From: Escherichia coli
GTDB taxonomy: Bacteria > Pseudomonadota > Gammaproteobacteria > Enterobacterales > Enterobacteriaceae
DNA length: 64,000 nucleotides
Assembly: GCF_044324875.1 (NCBI RefSeq)
Contig: NZ_CP172185.1
Reading direction: 5' to 3' (one strand)
Below, piece after piece: positions 20,026 to 58,099 of the stretch. The notes below the pieces were generated by a model that saw nothing but the letters and a program-made list of their open reading frames with translations, did not search any database and was not told the DNA's origin. The stretch's first letter is position 1, and each line of letters starts with the position of its first letter. A program made the translations under genes and the position numbers.

Positions 20026-20086
20026 GGTATCCGTTCTGCTGAAGTGTCATGGCGTTGATTTTACGGTGACTCTTCGACAGTGAAAA

Positions 20087-20108
20087 GAAAAAAGGCCGCA
20101 GAGCGGCC
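20087..20108. repeat. attL core, direct repeat gaaaaaaggccgcagagcggcc
   Basis: Identical 22-mer at 57761-57782; seen in sequence. Confidence 0.7.
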
Positions 20109-20200: not shown

Positions 20201-20218
20201 GGTCACTTTGTGGATCAT
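20201..20218. repeat. 18-bp repeat ggtcactttgtggatcat inside prophage left arm (possible integrase arm-type site)
   Basis: 17/18 match to 57705-57722 in same orientation; functional role is inference. Confidence 0.3.
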
Positions 20219-20631
20219 TCGTCCCCTTCTTTCTCTTTGTTCTGTTGAACGCTAATTGCGACACACGTAGCAATCAAATCTTTACATTTCTCCATATCTT
20301 CTGTCTTGCGCAACTTGATGCTTGCCACCGATTGTGGATTATCCGCTGTGGCACAATGCATTGTTATTTCAATGTCGTTTCGATGAAAGAGTCCCATAAT
20401 AGCTTTTGCAACCTCCGTCCCTTTTTCCGCGATATCAAAGATCAAAGCAAGTTTATACAAAATATCACCAGAAAAACACTCAACCCTGCTAAGACCAACA
20501 TCACATAATGAAAAATATTGCTCAACGTCCCCCTGGAGTTCGGGAGCACACACAATATCTATTTTTCCGTACTGGCCTGAATAAAAGTCACTATTAACTG
20601 TTTTTTTCACAACATCCTCCTTCTTCAGCAA
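20215..20631 (-). CDS. hypothetical acidic protein at prophage left end (C-terminal region paralogous to ORF 56096-56311)
   Basis: 138-aa ORF overlapping 3' end of int; FHRNDIEITMHC...IKLRKTEDMEKCKDLI resembles FRRNDIEIELHF...VKLRHARDVQACQCLI. Confidence 0.55.
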   Translation of the reverse strand: MLKKEDVVKKTVNSDFYSGQYGKIDIVCAPELQGDVEQYFSLCDVGLSRVECFSGDILYKLALIFDIAEKGTEVAKAIMGLFHRNDIEITMHCATADNPQSVASIKLRKTEDMEKCKDLIATCVAISVQQNKEKEGDE

Positions 20632-21595
20632 TTGGATTAAACCTCACCGCATCCTGCAAATAATCCGGTGCAAGATGGGCATAAATCATCGTTGTCTGAA
20701 TCTTTGCGTGCCCCAGAATTTTCTGGAGCGTCAGAATATTGCCGCCGTTCATCATGAAATGACTGGCGAAAGTGTGGCGCAGCGCGTGAACGGCCTGCCC
20801 GTCAGGAATGGAAGGGGCAACCGCTTTTATCGAATCGCGCACCAGTGAATAATCCAGCGCCGGAAATACCAGCTTTCCGCCCCGTTTTTTAATTTTGTCA
20901 AACAGGCTTTCAGAAATTGGAACAGTCCGGTTTTTACTGTTTTTGGTTCTGGAAAATGTGATCCGGGAATGCAGAACGCGGCGCTGTTCAAGTGCCACCA
21001 CCTCACCCCATCGCGCCCCGGTAGATAAAAGAATTTCAGTAGCTAGCCGTTCGTCGGGATGCTCTACCAGAACGTCAAGCAGCTGGAGGCACTCCTGCCT
21101 GTTCAGATACCCCATTTCGCGCTCGCTGACCTTCATCCCTTTCAGTCCGCTAACAGGGTTATCATTCTGGAAGTGACCGGATGAGATGAGTGCGGAAAAC
21201 ATCGCGCTAAGCGCACCAACCTCGCGGTTTATGGTACTTGGCTGAATCCCCTCCTCCGCTCTTGCCACGCGTAATTCCGTTAACGTGGTGGCGTTGACGT
21301 TGTTAACACGCGGATCCCCCATCGCTTCACACACGCGCTGTAATTTGAGGCGTGTGTTCCACCCCGATTTCATCAGTTGCCCGTGAAACTTCCACCATAA
21401 TTCGATAAGTTCGGACAACGAACGGCGATCGGTCGGCGCACTGTTCCATGCGTTATTTTGGTGTTGAGCTAAAACCCAGCGTTCGAACTGGATAGCCTCC
21501 GACTTTGTTTTGAACTTTTTACGAATGCGTTTACCTTTGCGCCCATCAGGACGCATATCAACCATGTAGCCACCAGGGATTGATTTTATGCTCAT
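20594..21595 (-). CDS. int: tyrosine-type site-specific integrase (P2 Int-like)
   Basis: Translation MSIKSIPGGYMVDMRPDGRKGKR...; C-terminal ...HALRHTFASHFMMNGGNILTLQKILGH...YAHL catalytic region; start chosen at ATG 21595 inside longer ORF. Confidence 0.9.
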   Translation of the reverse strand: MSIKSIPGGYMVDMRPDGRKGKRIRKKFKTKSEAIQFERWVLAQHQNNAWNSAPTDRRSLSELIELWWKFHGQLMKSGWNTRLKLQRVCEAMGDPRVNNVNATTLTELRVARAEEGIQPSTINREVGALSAMFSALISSGHFQNDNPVSGLKGMKVSEREMGYLNRQECLQLLDVLVEHPDERLATEILLSTGARWGEVVALEQRRVLHSRITFSRTKNSKNRTVPISESLFDKIKKRGGKLVFPALDYSLVRDSIKAVAPSIPDGQAVHALRHTFASHFMMNGGNILTLQKILGHAKIQTTMIYAHLAPDYLQDAVRFNPIAEEGGCCEKNS

Positions 21596-21644
21596 TGGCA
21601 TACCCCCAGCGTCACAAGCCCACCGTGCCCCCAGCGTTCCATAA

Positions 21645-21953
21645 TCAGCCGTGCAGTGTGCCAGTCTTGCGGACTTTTTGAGAAGGTGATGTGCTTTCTG
21701 GCCCATCAGGGGAGAGAGTCGGGCTGATCTGCCCAGCAGCCTCGTTTGTTTTTCCCGTCATGAGCCAATTCATGTACTTAAAAAAACGAGGATGATTAAC
21801 AATCTTGACGAGAGCTTCGCCGCCGACATTCTCAATCCGACCTGTCTCATAACGGCGTAGAGTACCGATAGGTACATCAATCAGTTCACAAAACTCTTCA
21901 CGCGTTAACCCTTCCGACTCACGAATTACTCTGATTTTTTCACCAATAAACAT
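21645..21953 (-). CDS. immunity repressor (P2 C-like HTH protein)
   Basis: 102-aa HTH protein upstream of int and divergent from early operon; recalled resemblance to P2 C. Confidence 0.7.
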   Translation of the reverse strand: MFIGEKIRVIRESEGLTREEFCELIDVPIGTLRRYETGRIENVGGEALVKIVNHPRFFKYMNWLMTGKTNEAAGQISPTLSPDGPESTSPSQKVRKTGTLHG

Positions 21954-21992: not shown

Positions 21993-22010
21993 GTGTACTT
22001 ATAAGTACAC
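21993..22010. promoter_or_regulatory. perfect 18-bp palindrome GTGTACTTATAAGTACAC in the repressor/early divergent intergenic region (putative operator)
   Basis: Seen in sequence; flanked by a second inverted repeat gtattcttg...caagaatac. Confidence 0.5.
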
Positions 22011-23847: not shown

Positions 23848-24333
23848 TTAGCGGGAAGCGCCAACCGTAAGGCTGGCAATGATTTTTTCGGAGAGTGAGA
23901 GAGATTCGCGATGATTAAGACCAAGAGCAGCACAAGCTTTATTGCGCGCCGGGTTGTCCATGCATTCAAGCACCGGAGAGTCCTGCTTCTCAATTTCCAC
24001 CAGTCGCGCCAGCAACACCTCCGTGCTGAGACCGTCGCTTTCAGTAATCAGGACGTTATAGCGATGAGCCTGTTCTTTTGCAGCCTGAGCGCGTCGCCCA
24101 AATTTCCAGGCGATATTGCAGCCACTAAGCACAGCCACGATACCACCCAGCAACCAACTGAAATTGCTGTCTGCAAACACAGTAGCCCCAGACGTAAGGA
24201 TGACAGCATTAATCACCGTATCCATACGGCGGTTAAACACCTCCGAAATATGTTCAAGCCAGTAACTGTTCCAGAGACGAAACATGACCTCGTGTCGCCG
24301 TTCGGCATGATTTTCAGTTGGTTGTCTGTTCAT
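23848..24333 (-). CDS. hypothetical membrane protein with a two-helix hydrophobic hairpin, opposite strand to early operon
   Basis: 161-aa ORF; hydrophobic stretch INAVILTSGATVFADSNFSWLLGGIVAVLSGCNIAW. Confidence 0.5.
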   Translation of the reverse strand: MNRQPTENHAERRHEVMFRLWNSYWLEHISEVFNRRMDTVINAVILTSGATVFADSNFSWLLGGIVAVLSGCNIAWKFGRRAQAAKEQAHRYNVLITESDGLSTEVLLARLVEIEKQDSPVLECMDNPARNKACAALGLNHRESLSLSEKIIASLTVGASR

Positions 24334-25131: not shown

Positions 25132-25454
25132 GCAATCACCATGTACACACAAAAAAACCGCTTGCAACAACAAACCGGAACAGGGTACGCTTCCCCCGCA
25201 CCTCATAAAGCGGGTGCCGGGTTTCGCAGCCTGCTGACTAGCAAAGCGCACAACCGCGCCAGCGGTTTTTTTGTGCGTACTGTATTGCCACGTCTTTTTC
25301 GCATCAGAATTATGGTGGGGCGTACGGGGCCGACTTCGGTCGGGCCGGTTTCTTCGTTTGCCGGTGTTGAGAACCCCGTACGTCTCGCCACCCCGAGATT
25401 CTCAACTCTGGTTGGTGAGTATCCAAAAACTCACAAACGAAGAGGCCAAACACC

Positions 25455-45852: not shown

Positions 45853-48800
45853 CTAATCTCTGTCACGGAAACTACCGACTGTCTGGCGGATACGGCGTTC
45901 CATTTCCGCACGGACGGCATCACCCACCATTTTTGCCAGTTCGCGCGGGTTTTGCGTGTGAACATCATGCAGGTGAATATGCAGTTCGCCAGTTAATCCC
46001 CATGGTGCCGGATCACTCTGACGCGGTCGGGGCGATGCGGGGGATATGGGCTGGCGCACAGCCTCAACCACCGGACGGGATGTTGCCGTTACGACGGGTG
46101 TCATTACCGGCGCAATATTGCCGGACACTACCGGTTTAATTACCGGGGAGAGCGTCGGTATAACATCGCCAGCCATAACCGGTTTGATCGCTGGCGAAAT
46201 AACCGGAGCAACAGACTCAGCCATGACGGAACTGACAGGCTGAGGCGCTCTCACTATGCCAGCATCGATAACCAGCATGAGCTCGCGTACTGCCTCAAGG
46301 ACAGGACGGGATATTGCCGCCATCACTGGTGTCATTAGCGGGGAGAACGTCGGCATGACATCGTGAGTCATAACCGGTTTGATCACCGGCGAAACCACCG
46401 GCGTAATATTACCGGACAGTACCGGACGGACGACCGGAGGAATAACCGGCACATTATTCACGGACACCACCGGCTTCACGACCGGCGACACGTTCGCCGT
46501 GGTGGATATCAGCGGCGAAACACTGACAGGCGGTGGCGCTGGCAGCGGTGGCAACGAAGGCACACTGACCGACGGCACCTGCGGCAGTCTGACAGGTGGC
46601 TCACTGACACTACCCGGTAACAGGGAAGCTGCGCGGTTAAAGCGTTCCTCCTTCCACTCACCACGAACGGCCAGCGCTTCCGGCAGGTTTTTAAAGATAA
46701 TATCGCCGGGACCAGTGCGTTTTTTCGCCTGTTTCGCCTCATCCAGCAGGCCACCGGTGTTATCGACGATTTTATTCAGGCGACGCATGGTGCCGGTATT
46801 CTCCCCCGTCAGCGGAGCAGTTGCTGCAGGTGCAGGTACTGGCGGCTTTTTGTCTTTGTCATTTTGCGGCGGATTAATGACATTAACATCCGCCAGGAGC
46901 ATGGCGGCTTTCTCGTTCAGCAGCTCCTTCTGCTTCAGCTCTTCCGCCTTTTTCCGGGCGCGCTCAACCGCCGACGGAATCAGCCCGAGTTTTTCCAGCA
47001 CCCGGGTTAATGAGTCAATCAGCAGCGTAACCGGACCGGTCACCAGATTGCTGATAAACTCCCCGACCTTCTGCCCGAACGTCCGCCCGGCTTCCGTGCA
47101 CTTGTCCAGCTCATCCTTTGTTGTGCTTACCGGCGCGAACAAATCCACGAACCACTGCCACACACGCCCGATTGTCTGCCCGACATACTCAAACAATGGT
47201 CCCAGTGGTGCCACAGCCTCGCGCAGTGGCGTAAGCCCCTGCCACAGGCCGGACAAGAACCCGCCCACGACAGCCTTCAGCTGGTCCCAGTGCCGCCAGA
47301 TAAGCACTGCCGCACCGACCAGTGTCGCCACCACAAGGCCCACCGGACTTAACAGAAAACCCAGCGCCCCGCCAAGTGCGCCCACCGCACCACTCACCAT
47401 CCCCCACAGTGCGGGCAGACCTGACAGTCTGAGCGCCAGTATTCCGATACCGCGCCCCAGTGAAATCAGTGCGCCGCCAGGTGAAGTGAACGCAGCCAGC
47501 AGACCACCACGCAGCGCGCCAAGTCCCGCCTGCACACCACGAAGCCGCCCCGCAACTACGCCCAGCAGTGCAGCAAACCGTCCGGCACCGGAGGTGATAC
47601 CGACAAACAGCACGCGCCAGCCACCGATACCGCCCAGCGGACCACCGAGTACGCCGCGCAGCTGCGTCAGTAACGGCAGCGCACGACCGAGGCCGGATGT
47701 GCCGGTCAGCAGGGCAAACCCAAGACGCAGTTTTGCCAGCGGCCCCATCAACACACCAGTGGCAAGTGACAGCGCCCCCATGGCCGCAACCGCAGCCAGC
47801 AGTGCACCACCGGCAATCAGCAGTTGTTTTGTCAGTTCAGGGTGCGCCTGGGCCAGCGCGGTGACTTTCGCAATAACCCGGGTGAACGACTGCGTGACAG
47901 AACGCAGCGGCCCGTCAACGAGGTCAGCGACACGGATACGCAGCCCTTCCCATGCGCTGTTCAGTGATTTCAGGTCGCCGTCCAGGTTGTCCGCCATGAT
48001 TCTGGCGTTTTCTTCCAGTTCGCCGTTCGCTGCCTGAATCTCACGCGTCAGGCGCGGCAGGTTTTTTTCGCCTGCCTGTTCAACCAGGCTCATCAGGGAG
48101 ACATACGCCTCCTGCCCGGCAATATCTGAAAAGAACGAGACTTTTGCCGCGTTACCGTATTTACGGGTGGCCTGATACAGCTCATACAGGATATCTTCCA
48201 TCGGGCGCATGTTCCCGTAAGCATCCTGCGTTTCCACGCCCAGCTGTTTCAGCGCCTTTGCTGCCGCTTTAGGCGGGTTCACAAGGCGGGACAGACTGGA
48301 GCGCAGCGCCGTACCAGCATCACTGCCACGTATCCCCATCGACCCAAGCAACCCGGTCATGGCTGCGGTCTGTTCAAGAGACAGACCGAGTGAGGCGGCG
48401 ACCGGTCCCGTATATTTCATCGTCTCACCAAGCCCGCGCAGGTCGGTATTGGTGCGGGTGAACGTTGCGGCCAGCGTGTCACCCACGCGGTTCATCTGGT
48501 CGGCAGACAACCCGAACTGCGTAAGGATATTTGAGCTGATATCGGCCGTCTGACCGAGGTCCATGCCGCTGGCCGTTGCCAGATTCAGCACGCCGGGAAG
48601 AGCCGCCTGTATCGCCTGCGGCGTGAACCCCGCCATGGCAAGGAACGCCTGACCGCTGGCAGCATCACCTGCGGTAAACTGCGTTTCGGAGCCGAGTTTA
48701 AGCGCCTGTTCGCGCAGCGCCTTAAACTGCGGACTGTTTTTGTCAATACGGGTCAGCGCCTGGACGCGCGACATCTCCTTACCAAAACTGACCGCCGGTT

Positions 48801-49395: not shown

Positions 49396-49908
49396 GCTCT
49401 GCGTTCCCGCTGCGAAGGGCCGCCCGCTCACGCCAGGCGACCACCTCGCCGGGATCCATCAGGAAGATTTCAGCGGGAGACCAGTTGAAAATAACGGCGA
49501 TATCCGCCACAAAGTCTTCAATATGCTCAAAGGGCACGACGGTTATCAGCCTGCCGTCGCCGCCACGCTCTTCCCGCCAGAGTCCTGACCGGCCAAAAAA
49601 TTAACCGCCACCCCGCACAGCTGAATAAAATCAGCGGACCCCATGCGCTTAAGCAGAACCTCGTCCAGTCGCGGCGAAGTGACGCGCGGGAGTAACTCAA
49701 ACATCGCGTCCGTTTTCATGTTCAGCACGTCAAGCAGTGACAGCCCGCGCAGTGAACCGGCCTGCTGTACAGCAGGCGTGATTTCCACATACGTGATTTT
49801 TTTGTTACCGAGCACAAGGGGCGTTTTCAGCGTCACGCCGCGCTCACTGGTCACGTCCGCCGCATCAGCACCGTCAGTAACAGGGGCAACAACCGGATTT
49901 TCTTTCAT
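49382..49908 (-). CDS. tail assembly chaperone E' (E+E' product via programmed -1 frameshift)
   Basis: Slippery heptamer T TTT TTG (minus strand; plus-strand CAAAAAA at 49594-49600); -1 frame stays open to 49382, overlapping tape measure start. Confidence 0.5.
49546..49908 (-). CDS. tail assembly chaperone E
   Basis: 120-aa ORF between tube and tape measure genes; ends shortly after slippery TTTTTTG. Confidence 0.75.
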   Translation of the reverse strand: MKENPVVAPVTDGADAADVTSERGVTLKTPLVLGNKKITYVEITPAVQQAGSLRGLSLLDVLNMKTDAMFELLPRVTSPRLDEVLLKRMGSADFIQLCGVAVNFLAGQDSGGKSVAATAG

Positions 49909-54490: not shown

Positions 54491-54506
54491 TTCGCTTACA
54501 ACAAAC
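54491..54506. promoter_or_regulatory. late-promoter-like motif TTCGCTTACAACAAAC upstream of D (same 16-mer as at 35128-35143)
   Basis: Exact 16-mer shared with the scaffold-gene promoter region. Confidence 0.3.
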
Positions 54507-54566
54507 AGCCGTTCACCACGGTCGCACGCCGTGAAAACATGACGGGACACACCACGAGGGCAGACC

Positions 54567-55658
54567 ATGACCGACCTGTTAATCAACGTTCCGTCACCGG
54601 ATATCGAAATCACCATCAACAACAACAGACTCCGTAACGTCACGGAGCGGCTCATGACGCTGTCACTGACCGACAACCGGGGCTTTGAGGCGGACCGCGT
54701 CACCCTGACCATTGACGACGCGGACGGGCAGCTTCAGCTGCCACAGCGCGGCGCACGCCTGAACGTGATGATTGGCTGGCGCGGGGAGGCGCTGGTTAAC
54801 AAGGGTGTCTACATCGTTGATGAAGTGACGTGGGAAGGCCCGCCGGACAAACTGACCATCACCGCCAGCAGCGCCGATTTTCGCGAAGAGTTCAACGTGA
54901 AGCGTGAAGTCTCCTGGCACGACGTGACGGTAAAACAGGTTGTGTCAGCCATCGCGCACCGCTACGGCCTGAAAGCACAGATAAGCGATATCCTCATGGA
55001 TATCGAAATTGACCACGCAGACCAGACCGAAGAGAGCGATATATCCTTCCTGACCCGCATGGCTGAAATGCTGGGTGCGATTGCCACCGTAAAAAACGGC
55101 AGCCTGTTATTCATTCTGCCGGGTGGCGGAACCGGGCCGGACGGAAAAGCCCTGCCTTCGTTCGCCATTACCCGCAGCAGCGGCGACAGTCACCGCTTTC
55201 GCATTGCTGACCGTGATGCGTATACGGGGGTCCGGGCGCACTGGCTCGATCTGAAGTTCGGGCAAAAGAAAAAAGTGAACGTGAAGCGACGCAGGGAAGC
55301 CGGGAAACAGAAACAGGAGAAGAGCAGCAGCCGGGAAGGTGATTACATGGAGGGCGCGGAAGGGAACGTCTACGTTCTGCGCAGGACTTACCAGAATGAA
55401 GAAACCGCACGACGTGCAGCAGCTGCAAAGTGGCAGGAACTACAGCGGGGCGCGGCATCATTCTCCATCACGCTGGCGCGCGGTCGTGCCGACCTGTACC
55501 CTGAAATGCACGGCAGGGTAACAGGTTTTAAAAGCGAGGTGGACAATCAGGACTGGATTATTGCCAGGGTGGAGCACAGCATAGATGAAAGCGGCTTCAC
55601 CACACAACTGGAGCTGGAAGCGAAAATCCCCGAATGGATAGCAGATTCAGGCGGATAA
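54567..55658 (+). CDS. late control/tail protein D
   Basis: 363-aa ORF directly upstream of ogr-like gene, as in P2. Confidence 0.85.
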   Translation: MTDLLINVPSPDIEITINNNRLRNVTERLMTLSLTDNRGFEADRVTLTIDDADGQLQLPQRGARLNVMIGWRGEALVNKGVYIVDEVTWEGPPDKLTITASSADFREEFNVKREVSWHDVTVKQVVSAIAHRYGLKAQISDILMDIEIDHADQTEESDISFLTRMAEMLGAIATVKNGSLLFILPGGGTGPDGKALPSFAITRSSGDSHRFRIADRDAYTGVRAHWLDLKFGQKKKVNVKRRREAGKQKQEKSSSREGDYMEGAEGNVYVLRRTYQNEETARRAAAAKWQELQRGAASFSITLARGRADLYPEMHGRVTGFKSEVDNQDWIIARVEHSIDESGFTTQLELEAKIPEWIADSGG

Positions 55659-55701: not shown

Positions 55702-55953
55702 ATGTTCCGTTGTCCCCTGTGCGGTGCATCCGCACGTATCCGCACCAGTCGCAATGAAAATGATTCAGGCACAGTTCGCCTGAAGTACTACCAGTGCAAT
55801 AACCTCGAATGCGGGATCGGCTTTACCACACTGGAGGGTTTTAACAAATTCACATCAAAACGCGCCCCGTCGCCGCAGGGTACAGAGCGGATACCGTGGG
55901 AAGATTTTCCGGGATCTCACAGGGGGAATGCTCAGATGAATCTTGATATTTAA
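55702..55953 (+). CDS. ogr: Ogr/Delta-family zinc-finger late transcription activator
   Basis: MFRCPLCG...YYQCNNLECG Cys4 arrangement; position after D. Confidence 0.8.
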   Translation: MFRCPLCGASARIRTSRNENDSGTVRLKYYQCNNLECGIGFTTLEGFNKFTSKRAPSPQGTERIPWEDFPGSHRGNAQMNLDI

Positions 55954-55965
55954 GAACAATAATCA

Positions 55966-56097
55966 GGTTGAGAGGACATCATAAGGCAAGTAGATTAACG
56001 GCAGATACTTTCCCGCAACCACGGGCAAGTATTTAATTATCCATGATGAAATATGACCTAAATTGTTTTTTGCCCGCCGGAAAGCGGGCATTTTTTT
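55966..56097 (+). repeat. repeat unit 1 (GGTTGAG...GTAGATTAAC...hairpin+T-run), candidate small RNA
   Basis: Shares 5' GGTTGAG, GTAGATTAAC core, TTATCCATGAT and terminal gcccgccNNNNNNgggc+T7 with units 2/3. Confidence 0.3.
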
Positions 56098-56311
56098 ATT
56101 CTTTTGTGGTTATGGGGTCATCAGGAACCACGTGCAGATTATATTTTTGTTTTTTTGGCGTTCCTCCGGCAGCAACGAGTTCATCAATAAGACACTGACA
56201 CGCCTGAACATCCCGGGCATGTCTTAGTTTCACCTTTATTGATTTAACCTTATCCTCACCGGAGGAGAAATGCAGTTCAATCTCAATATCGTTTCTTCGG
56301 AACAATCTCAT
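56096..56311 (-). CDS. hypothetical small protein, paralogous to C-terminal half of ORF 20215-20631
   Basis: 71-aa ORF with RBS AGGGGGG; similarity noted by eye. Confidence 0.5.
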   Translation of the reverse strand: MRLFRRNDIEIELHFSSGEDKVKSIKVKLRHARDVQACQCLIDELVAAGGTPKKQKYNLHVVPDDPITTKE

Positions 56312-56580
56312 ACGCCCCCCTGAATATATCAGAAATGCTAGTATCGAAAAATGAGAAAACAGTTAGACAGGAGAAACATATTAACACAAATCATTTATAC
56401 CTATAGATGAAATTATAATTTCATTCATGAATATGATAGATAACTATATTGTGAACAAAATGAAAAATGGCTAAATTAAAAATGGGCATGGAGGAATGCC
56501 TCGTAATCAGTAATACATGATCCATACTTCCTTGTTTTGCCCGCCGGAAAGCGGGCATTTTTTTGGCGGTTACCATCGCC

Positions 56581-56765
56581 TCACCTTCCTGGTTCACACA
56601 AAGCAACCCTGATTTTCCATGAAAACTTCAGGGTTGAGCCAAAAGCACAAAGACAGTAGATTAACCAAGGGTACCCGCCACCTGCCAACAGGAACGGTAT
56701 CCAGTACGTATTAATGACTGACAATTCACATTGCTGTTTTGCCCGCCAGAAGGTGGGCATTTTTT
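56581..56765 (+). repeat. repeat unit 2 (~203-bp period) ending in intrinsic terminator, candidate small RNA
   Basis: Near-identical to unit 3 with scattered substitutions; terminator stem 56740-56757 + T-run. Confidence 0.35.
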
Positions 56766-56783
56766 TGGCAGTTATCATGGACG

Positions 56784-56968
56784 CACCTTCATGACACATA
56801 TTAAGCAGACCTGATTTTTCCATGAAAAATTCATGGTTGAGACAAAAGCACAAAAACAGTAGATTAACCACGGGTGCCTGCCACCTGACAACAGGAAGGG
56901 GTGTCCATTATCCATGATATACAAACGAAAAGTCTTGTCTTTTGCCCGCCGTTGCGCGGGCTTTTTTT
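56784..56968 (+). repeat. repeat unit 3 ending in intrinsic terminator, candidate small RNA
   Basis: As unit 2; terminator stem 56943-56960 + T8 overlaps hicB stop. Confidence 0.35.
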
Positions 56969-57366
56969 TATCCAAGAACCCTGTCTGCAGCAACACGCGC
57001 CAGAAATCCAGAGCGGCTACCGTATTCAGGATGAGACTCAACGAACTGATCAATGCGACGAATAAGCAGAGATGGCAGGGTAACATTGATTTTTTCCGAT
57101 TTCCCCATCAGGCGGGACACATCCACCTCAACGAGCGCCCACACTGCATCACTGTATTCAGGATCTGATTGCCATTCATCAAGATTTGTAGCGACAGGGA
57201 TAGACTCACCAGATTCAACCAGTAATTCTACGTGTGCCTCAATGGCTTCACGGGCACTGTCTACCGCATCCTGAAAACTATCACCGCCAGAAAAACAGCC
57301 GGGCAGATCTGGGACGCGAACACCAAAAGATGAATCCCCCCGGTCAATAGCGATTGCATATAACAT
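56968..57366 (-). CDS. hicB: HicB-family antitoxin
   Basis: MLYAIAIDRGDSSFGVRVPDLPGCFSGGDSFQDAVDSAREAIEAH... typical HicB N-domain; C-terminal RHH-like tail. Confidence 0.8.
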   Translation of the reverse strand: MLYAIAIDRGDSSFGVRVPDLPGCFSGGDSFQDAVDSAREAIEAHVELLVESGESIPVATNLDEWQSDPEYSDAVWALVEVDVSRLMGKSEKINVTLPSLLIRRIDQFVESHPEYGSRSGFLARVAADRVLG

Positions 57367-57388
57367 TGAGACCTCCAGAAGGTGGGGC

Positions 57389-57568
57389 TTACAGCCCCGC
57401 CTGTTTCTTAATACTTTTTAAAGTTGGTAAAGGTATATCTTTTTGAGGGTGTTTTACCGTTACCAGCCCCTTCTTTGTCGGATGTTTGAATTGATGATGA
57501 CTCCCCTTAACCCTAACAAGATACCATCCATCCGCCTCTATCATTGCTATTGCACTTTTGCTATCCAT
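57389..57568 (-). CDS. hicA: HicA-family toxin (59 aa; absent from ORF track)
   Basis: Manual translation of minus strand: MDSKSAIAMIEADGWYLVRVKGSHHQFKHPTKKGLVTVKHPQKDIPLPTLKSIKKQAGL; 20 bp upstream of hicB. Confidence 0.75.
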   Translation of the reverse strand: MDSKSAIAMIEADGWYLVRVKGSHHQFKHPTKKGLVTVKHPQKDIPLPTLKSIKKQAGL

Positions 57569-57704
57569 CCCCCCGTACTCCGTCTTTCGTTGTTGGAGTT
57601 ATTATAACCCCAACAACTAGTCAAAGCAAGGGTTCGGAGTTATTAGAGTTATAGAATAATTGACTGCCTCCCCAAAACTGCGGCAAGAAAAAACCACTGA
57701 CCAC

Positions 57705-57722
57705 GGTCAATTTGTGGATCAT
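57705..57722. repeat. 18-bp repeat ggtcaatttgtggatcat inside prophage right arm
   Basis: 17/18 match to 20201-20218. Confidence 0.3.
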
Positions 57723-57760
57723 GAATTAATTTTTATTTATAAATCAATGCATTATACAAA

Positions 57761-57782
57761 GAAAAAAGGCCGCAGAGCGGCC
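57761..57782. repeat. attR core gaaaaaaggccgcagagcggcc (part of ihfA terminator hairpin)
   Basis: Identical to 20087-20108; followed by T-run, i.e. intact terminator after ihfA. Confidence 0.7.
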
Positions 57783-57799
57783 TTTTTAGTTAGATCAGA

Positions 57800-58099
57800 T
57801 TACTCGTCTTTGGGCGAAGCGTTTTCGACCCGGCTTTTTAACTTCTGCCCGGGTCTGAAGGTCACCACGCGCCGTGCTGTAATGGGAATATCCTCGCCCG
57901 TTTTCGGGTTACGTCCCGGGCGTTGATTCTTATCACGCAGATCGAAGTTACCAAAACCAGAGAGTTTCACCTGTTCGCCGTTTTCCAGAGCGCGACGGAT
58001 CTCTTCGAAAAACAGTTCAACCAGTTCTTTGGCATCCCGCTTGCTAAGCCCAAGCTTATCAAACAGATATTCTGACATTTCAGCTTTTGTAAGCGCCAT
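57800..58099 (-). CDS. ihfA: integration host factor alpha subunit
   Basis: 99-aa [57 protein letters not shown]... Confidence 0.95.

Follow-up and report, generated by a model that had tools for sequence, protein, structure and literature searches.

What does a stretch of 225 AT-rich nucleotides do, when it sits upstream of a gene for a protein of 71 amino acids near the end of a prophage? The block in question (56312-56536) lies within 64,000 nucleotides of Escherichia coli DNA (NCBI RefSeq assembly GCF_044324875.1, contig NZ_CP172185.1), called here the window. A sequence-only reading supposed that the block, with the perfect palindrome it contains, is the likely operator and promoter of the small gene. 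That interpretation is partly supported. On balance I think it probable that the block lies between two divergently oriented genes, in the accessory part of a P2-like prophage that stretches from ogr to the right attachment site. Its right-hand 115 bp would be taken up by a small RNA gene, here called u2, its left part would be the 5' flank of the leftward ORF, and the palindrome would most likely be an operator of that ORF.

A P2-like prophage and its right end

The P2-like prophage in the window occupies the ihfA terminator, with btuC on one side and ihfA on the other; about 37.7 kb lie within the att repeats. Its landmarks, and those around the block, are the following.

20084-20108 and 57758-57782, no strand: the 25-bp att core AAAGAAAAAAGGCCGCAGAGCGGCC, a perfect direct repeat that is the ihfA terminator
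20594-21706: integrase, inside the att repeats
21645-21953: HTH repressor, inside the att repeats
54567-55658: gpD, upstream of ogr
55702-55953, plus strand: ogr, the late activator, with which the core genes of the prophage end (Pfam Ogr_Delta, E 5e-14)
56096-56311, minus strand: the 71-aa ORF (ORF71), WP_001236182.1
56312-56406, minus strand: 5' flank of the ORF, with a G-run Shine-Dalgarno candidate at 56315-56320 and weak candidates for a minus-strand promoter
56968-57366, minus strand: hicB (Pfam HicB_lk_antitox, E 9e-46)
57389-57568, minus strand: hicA (Pfam HicA_toxin, E 8e-22)

Besides the integrase, repressor, gpD and ogr, the att-bounded prophage includes gpA and, at its right end, the hicBA toxin-antitoxin pair. 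The right copy of the att core overlaps an Rfam match to STnc540 at 57703-57858. The stretch from ogr to the right att (55954-57782, about 1.8 kb) comes after the last core gene, varies in content among close relatives and is lower in GC. It is the accessory, or moron, region of the P2-like prophage. GC stands at 0.30 in 56300-56499 and at 0.53-0.62 in gpD (54500-55500), a profile that bears out the claim that the block is distinct in composition from the GC-rich late region. The suggestion that the block is separately acquired cargo holds as well, in that it lies in a variable accessory region whose content differs among related phages.

The block had also been described as bounded by two intrinsic terminators. 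The sites at 56071-56097 and 56538-56564 do enclose the ORF and the block together, but both are on the plus strand, opposite to the ORF, and each is a copy of a plus-strand terminator that occurs four times. At the last of these, that of unit u4 (below), the T-tract shares bases with the stop codon of hicB, and the ORF71 stop codon likewise overlaps the terminator of u1.

The prophage has features of its own elsewhere. In the early region, Rfam matches to isrK (64.7 bits) and to the C4 antisense RNA (79.2 bits) adjoin one another at 25198-25395 on the plus strand, a pair that by sequence would constitute P1/P7-type RNA control of an antirepressor. In the late region, at 46130-46440, are two direct repeats of 116 nt, 195 bp apart and 72% identical, probably within tail-fibre sequence.

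A probable gene facing the other way

Between 55966 and 56971 the plus strand carries four paralogous units, each consisting of a promoter, a structured RNA and a terminator, all as predicted.

55968-56097, plus strand: u1, with a promoter-like TTGAGA-17-TAGATT (55968-55996), a predicted RNA from about 56003 to 56097 and a terminator at 56071-56097
56449-56477, plus strand: predicted sigma-70 promoter of u2, with -35 TTGTGA (56449-56454), a 17-bp spacer and -10 TAAATT (56472-56477)
56484-56564, plus strand: predicted RNA of u2, about 81 nt, with a 5' hairpin (GGGCAU/AUGCCU), an AU-rich single-stranded stretch, UUGUUUU and a terminator at 56538-56564
56634-56766, plus strand: u3, promoter, RNA and terminator
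56837-56969, plus strand: u4, promoter, RNA and terminator

The plan common to the units is a -35 and a -10 element 17 bp apart (TTGAGn...TAGATT), about 100 transcribed nucleotides, and a terminator of the form GCCCGCC-loop-GCGGGC followed by 7-8 T. By prediction, each of the four RNAs, 81 to 101 nt long, has its own promoter and its own Rho-independent terminator. The unit in the block, u2 (56449-56564), is the most diverged of the four and fills the right 115 bp. Is it a genuine member of the family? A covariance model (R1) made from the long units only, without any u2-type sequence, matches u2 from end to end (56479-56564) with 39.6 bits and an E value of 7.7e-6. By comparison u1 scores 88.7 bits, u1 being among the sequences from which the model was built. 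The fold predicted for u1, a 5' hairpin, an open middle and the terminator, has a z score of -3.3.

The promoter of u2 is the top-scoring site in the block (10.5) and one of only 21 sites in the window to score at least 10, by a position-weight matrix whose frequencies are approximate. It matches the consensus at 8 of 12 positions, which is under the cut-off of the scan tool. Aligned with the other units, it falls in register with their promoters. Moreover, the distinct variants of the u2 type differ in one hexamer base (TAAATT to TAGATT), as against 3 and 6 bases in the spacer.

I propose, then, that sigma-70 RNA polymerase would start near 56484 from TTGTGA-17-TAAATT and would stop at the terminator at 56538-56564. 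This would yield an RNA of about 81 nt in which a 5' hairpin is followed by an open segment rich in AU, a U-rich patch and then the terminator, a layout that is the usual build of a base-pairing RNA that binds Hfq. The left part of the block would serve as the 5' flank of the leftward ORF, and the palindrome would most likely bind a dimeric protein that controls it. The view of the block as the control region of the 71-aa gene alone is not supported, given that about 115 of its 225 bp make up the separate plus-strand unit u2. Nor did promoter prediction on the strand of the ORF yield a convincing minus-strand promoter within the block.

A family of predicted small RNAs

The argument for u2 gains from the family to which it belongs. 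Units collected from the window, E. coli genomes, IMG/VR and metagenomes come to 13 distinct sequences and one variant. They are predicted to fold with a bipartite hairpin at the 5' end and the terminator at the 3' end; between the two come an open AU-rich segment and then a patch rich in U. Every unit has UUGUUUU, CUGUUUU or GUCUUUU 5' of the terminator stem and 7-8 U after it. An Hfq-binding module consists of a U-rich stretch just 5' of a terminator hairpin together with a U-tail of 7 or more. Most units also have the motif UAUC(C/A)AUGA(U/C) on the 3' side of the 5' hairpin.

Then there is the covariation. In an alignment fitted to the structure of the model, with sequences drawn from a few closely related arrays, 95.6% of cells are paired and 10 of 19 pairs have changed on both sides. 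None of 500 shuffles reaches the observed value, and when partners are slid the figure is at most 0.06, against 0.29. This is good but not conclusive support for a conserved structure, as judged from an alignment that the model itself shaped.

Could the units encode peptides instead? An ORF of 31 aa on the plus strand and one of about 35 aa on the minus strand (PWLIYCLCAF...) were considered and rejected, nearly all the differences between units being non-synonymous and no ribosome-binding site being present. The 9 nucleotide differences between u3 and u4, for example, would bring 8 amino-acid changes. Since none of the small ORFs in the units shows conservation at the protein level, the units are taken to be non-coding.

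Rfam 15 has no family that reaches its gathering threshold in 55900-57050; the best scores below threshold, 20-24 bits, come from the terminator. From homology and RNA structure I infer that the units are genes for Hfq-type base-pairing small RNAs, which would be transcribed, would bind Hfq and would find targets. In a search for local mRNA targets (hok, ORF71, hicAB, ogr and the window as a whole) no duplex that was compared with shuffled controls outdid them. A candidate complementarity of u1 to 24269-24300 falls 33-60 nt inside an ORF. The long units have in addition an inverted repeat, AACCCTGA-N15-TCAGGGTT (56605-56635 and 56808-56838). It overlaps their -35 element, recurs in conserved form from unit to unit and could serve them as an operator.

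Where the array is found

The stretch from ogr to att is present in only 30 of 5,426 complete E. coli genomes, as judged by megablast. On some chromosomes the segment 55950-56969 sits at other sites, copA and serS, behind the same ogr, and it is therefore phage-borne. Phages with an identical block use three different integration sites. Identity with the prophage at copA stops precisely at the last base of u4 (56969).

Among 50,697 sequenced phages there is no match for the block, the ORF or the units, as DNA or as protein, and gpD with ogr finds no megablast match in the same collection. A scan of GTDB species representatives for relatives of the units gave chance matches only, and IMG/VR and metagenomes gave only near-identical arrays of E. 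coli phages. A related type of phage carries as many as eight units (arrays L002, L003 and L027), between which lie hok genes and further versions of the small ORF. No literature on small RNAs beside ogr in P2-like phages surfaced.

The 71-aa ORF is half a gene

If the left part of the block serves the ORF, it is worth asking what the ORF is. ORF71 aligns only to the C-terminal half of an Enterobacterales family of 128-133 aa, starting from an internal Met of that family. Exhaustive searches brought up, besides these, only near-identical E. coli copies. It matches phrog_14142, which has no assigned function, at positions 72-127 of the 128 in that profile, and it finds no match in Pfam or PADLOC. 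The family as a whole likewise has no Pfam domain. In P2-like prophages its members adjoin the att site, some of them convergent with ogr and others immediately downstream of int. The window itself has one of full length at its left prophage end:

20215-20631, minus strand: full-length paralogue of ORF71 (about 131-138 aa), just downstream of int, 38% identical by BLASTP over 56 aa (E 6e-11) at residues 79-134

The same order, int, this gene and btuC, is found in L041. As annotation, then, the small "gene" beside the block is to be corrected to the C-terminal half of a gene that is conserved beside attP.

What became of the other half? A tblastn search with six full-length homologues found no remnant in the AT block beyond 4 residues upstream of the Met. 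The notion that a decayed N-terminal half lies hidden in the block was rejected for want of such a trace. The forms of 57 aa in L032 and L035/L036 are visibly decayed genes, as reading of their contexts makes plain. Two lineages retain an intact 71-aa form, preceded in L027 by a canonical ribosome-binding site, AGGAGG. It may be a working short form, to go by these sequences. Its AlphaFold model is weak (pLDDT 63.6) and consists of a beta-hairpin and a helix, with no known DNA-binding fold. Upstream of the ATG, at 56315-56320, is a C/G run of 6 C in the window and 5 in L002. With the run of 5, a frame upstream that starts with GTG is fused to give an ORF of 96 aa.

The palindrome

The palindrome was reported as perfect over 16 bp at 56408-56423, where the sequence is TGAAATTATAATTTCA. 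It is real, and in fact longer: one more paired base on either side makes it a perfect palindrome of 18 bp, ATGAAATTATAATTTCAT, at 56407-56424. It lies between ORF71 and u2. Measured from the ATG of the ORF it is 96-113 bp upstream, in agreement with the 100 bp or so given before, and its center is 68.5 bp upstream of the predicted start of u2. TATAAT can be read within it on both strands. The window has no second copy with 3 mismatches or fewer.

How surprising is such a palindrome? In a first-order Markov model of the 225-bp block, P is 0.003 for a palindrome of at least 18 bp and 0.010 for one of at least 16 bp. The window as a whole has 3 perfect palindromes of at least 18 bp against 0.375 expected, and one or more would be expected in 32% of random windows. 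A second, GTGTACTTATAAGTACAC (21993-22010), has the HTH repressor gene on one side and the early genes on the other, with GTATTCTTG/CAAGAATAC at its flanks; it probably serves the prophage repressor as immunity operator. A third, GCCTGCTGTACAGCAGGC, is at 49760-49777 in the late region.

The dyad can also be followed in paralogous copies. In the window type all 9 of 9 positions pair and the ORF is intact. In cassC and L027 the dyad reads ATGAAATTGCAGTTTCAT, with 8 of 9 paired. Both central bases have changed and the symmetry has been kept, by a compensating change of A:T to G:C, and in L027 this dyad adjoins an intact ORF. In cassB only 5 of 9 positions pair, and the ORF of cassB is dead by frameshift. 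Between cassB and the window, identity is 0.80 in the ORF, 0.74 in the flank and 0.78 in the palindrome, and 0.90 in the u2 promoter, 0.91 in the u2 RNA and 1.00 in the terminator. The symmetry of the site has thus been conserved (9/9 and 8/9, with 5/9 in the dead copy). The comparison, made over three or four paralogous copies, favors a dyad that is bound by a protein and is linked to the ORF, not to u2.

There is a further sign of constraint. In three paralogous copies the 28 nt at 56387-56414, from the end of the flank into the left arm of the palindrome, are invariant except for one Y position. Left arm and 20 flanking nt toward the ORF are thus all but unvarying where the paralogues are otherwise 74-88% identical.

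Operator, promoter or accident?

The original interpretation, extended, is that the whole block is promoter and operator of the 71-aa gene, with the TATAAT of the palindrome as -10 and a repressor that binds the dyad and so blocks transcription. I consider this rather unlikely. It is true that the minus strand has CTATCA-16-TATAAT (56439 to 56412), with a score of 8.0, that the palindrome is perfect and locally improbable, and that the integrity of the dyad tracks that of the ORF. But the -35 is poor, about half of the block is a plus-strand unit homologous to u1, u3 and u4, and the terminators on both sides of the block are on the plus strand. Furthermore, L027 has TGCAAT in place of TATAAT, and yet its ORF is intact and has the better ribosome-binding site. 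It is because of this loss beside an intact ORF that the embedded TATAAT is disfavored as a -10. Of the earlier proposal of an operator and promoter for the gene, the part concerning the operator is favored by the dyad, which persists beside an intact ORF, and the part concerning the promoter is not supported, the top promoter-like site facing away.

At the other extreme, the palindrome might have no specific function, being a product of chance in AT-rich junction DNA left after the N-terminal half was lost and silenced by H-NS. For its family ORF71 represents the C-terminal half alone, with a remnant of the rest undetectable by tblastn; the palindrome of cassB is degenerate (5/9); and a palindrome this long is no rarity at the scale of the window, as the figure of 32% shows. 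The sequence TCGAAAAATG (56344-56353) also resembles the H-NS nucleation motif, TCGATAAATT. Against these are the local P of 0.003, the near-invariance of the left arm and its 20 neighbors in three paralogues, and the compensating central change in cassC and L027. An accident of this sort is therefore an unlikely account of the palindrome, in my judgment.

The reading I prefer, an operator of the ORF set between two divergent genes, calls for a protein to bind it. No cognate DNA-binding protein was found on considering the prophage repressor and the model of ORF71. The repressor is a candidate, GTGTACTTATAAGTACAC and the flagged palindrome having 12 of 18 positions in common, including the central TTATAA. 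It was rejected as the binder of 56407-56424: in phages with an identical block, the repressor is no more than 65% identical and has another N-terminal half. It was rejected too in the form of a secondary operator, phages with the identical AT block also being without such an early operator region. Since an identical block goes with a different repressor and a different operator region, the prophage repressor is not the binder.

The full-length homologues of ORF71 have a dyad of their own, at a fixed distance of -95 from the ATG and just inside the host junction:

L004 4905-4926; also in L039, L034-36, L049, L054 and L055: dyad TGAAATAAA-agga-TTTATTTCA

This dyad and the palindrome of the window have in common the outer half-site TGAAAT/ATTTCA, with 10 bp at the center of the one and 4 bp at the center of the other. 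Homology between them was rejected: the half-sites match, and spacing and flanks do not. The same dyad is what might tempt one to regard the palindrome as a relic or secondary core site of a tyrosine recombinase, with 6-bp arms round a 6-bp spacer, dating from a time when the gene family directly adjoined attP, for the family does lie beside att or int in other P2-like phages and the dyad with the same outer half-site does lie by the host junction; but the 10-bp center there against 4 bp here, the non-homologous flanks, the lack of a break in synteny at the palindrome, the terminators as the actual cassette boundaries and the identical block in phages with three different integration sites make this very improbable indeed.

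What the array would add

The palindrome itself is a minor feature. The array around it would add an undescribed phage-borne family of structured small RNAs in P2-like phages, a group with little documentation of RNAs of this kind. Its tandem paralogues, whose single-stranded regions differ, would offer a compact system in which to study how the RNAs of prophages diversify and which targets they have. The long-standing open questions are untouched by it, and the family is limited to the 30 genomes in 5,426 noted above.

One may go further and imagine the end from ogr to attR as a self-expanding cassette array of trans-acting regulatory RNAs, directed for example against transcripts of the host or of rival phages. 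The identical 30-bp terminators would act as a recombination scaffold by which hok, hicBA and ORF71 are duplicated or swapped, and the palindrome would be the operator of a regulator that switches the divergent pair of ORF71 and u2. This is speculation, and I would call it quite improbable as a whole.

Comparison with known systems

The nearest parallel to the palindrome is within the same prophage. Like the repressor/early region (21993-22010), the block has a perfect 18-bp palindrome between two opposed transcription units. The parallel ends there: in phages with an identical AT block the DNA-binding helix region of the repressor differs and no such early operator is present.

The array as a whole brings to mind the repeats of Sib/Ibs, Ldr/Rdl and hok/sok. 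As in these, the repeat units are about 200 bp with an RNA gene in each, and related arrays carry hok between units. Unlike these, the units have no conserved small toxin ORF overlapping them, and the window has no hok. A repeat of type I toxin-antitoxin genes was rejected, candidate peptides on both strands changing at nearly every nucleotide that differs between units.

P2 and its relatives provide a second comparison. P2 attP is associated with the CyaR terminator, and att sites of P2-like phages lie at the 3' ends of RNA genes. Here too the att core is a terminator (the 3' end of ihfA, in the STnc540 region), and genes resembling those of small RNAs adjoin it. Unlike the case of P2 attP and CyaR, the units belong to the phage and are not its att site, the same array being found at three integration sites.

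The closest resemblance is to small RNAs carried by other prophages. DicF and IpeX are prophage-encoded Hfq-type small RNA morons. With these, and with AgvB/AsxR of Stx phages and PasA-D, the units have in common that each is a short gene, placed in an accessory region of a prophage and equipped with a promoter and a Rho-independent terminator of its own, that they occur in several diverged copies and that they are patchily distributed among strains of E. coli. PasA-D are described in a preprint as prophage-encoded small RNAs of lambdoid Stx phages (bioRxiv 10.64898/2026.05.13.724894). The differences are also clear. Small RNAs of the AgvB/AsxR and PasA-D type are found in lambdoid phages, whereas the phage here is P2-like. 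Those of the AgvB/AsxR type have no match to the units by sequence or through Rfam, the best being AgvB with 20 bits against a threshold of 56. Unlike them, the units stand up to eight in a single tandem array, and are known here by prediction. The array would seem, from its sequence, to be an undescribed member of the small-RNA morons borne by prophages, with its expression predicted.
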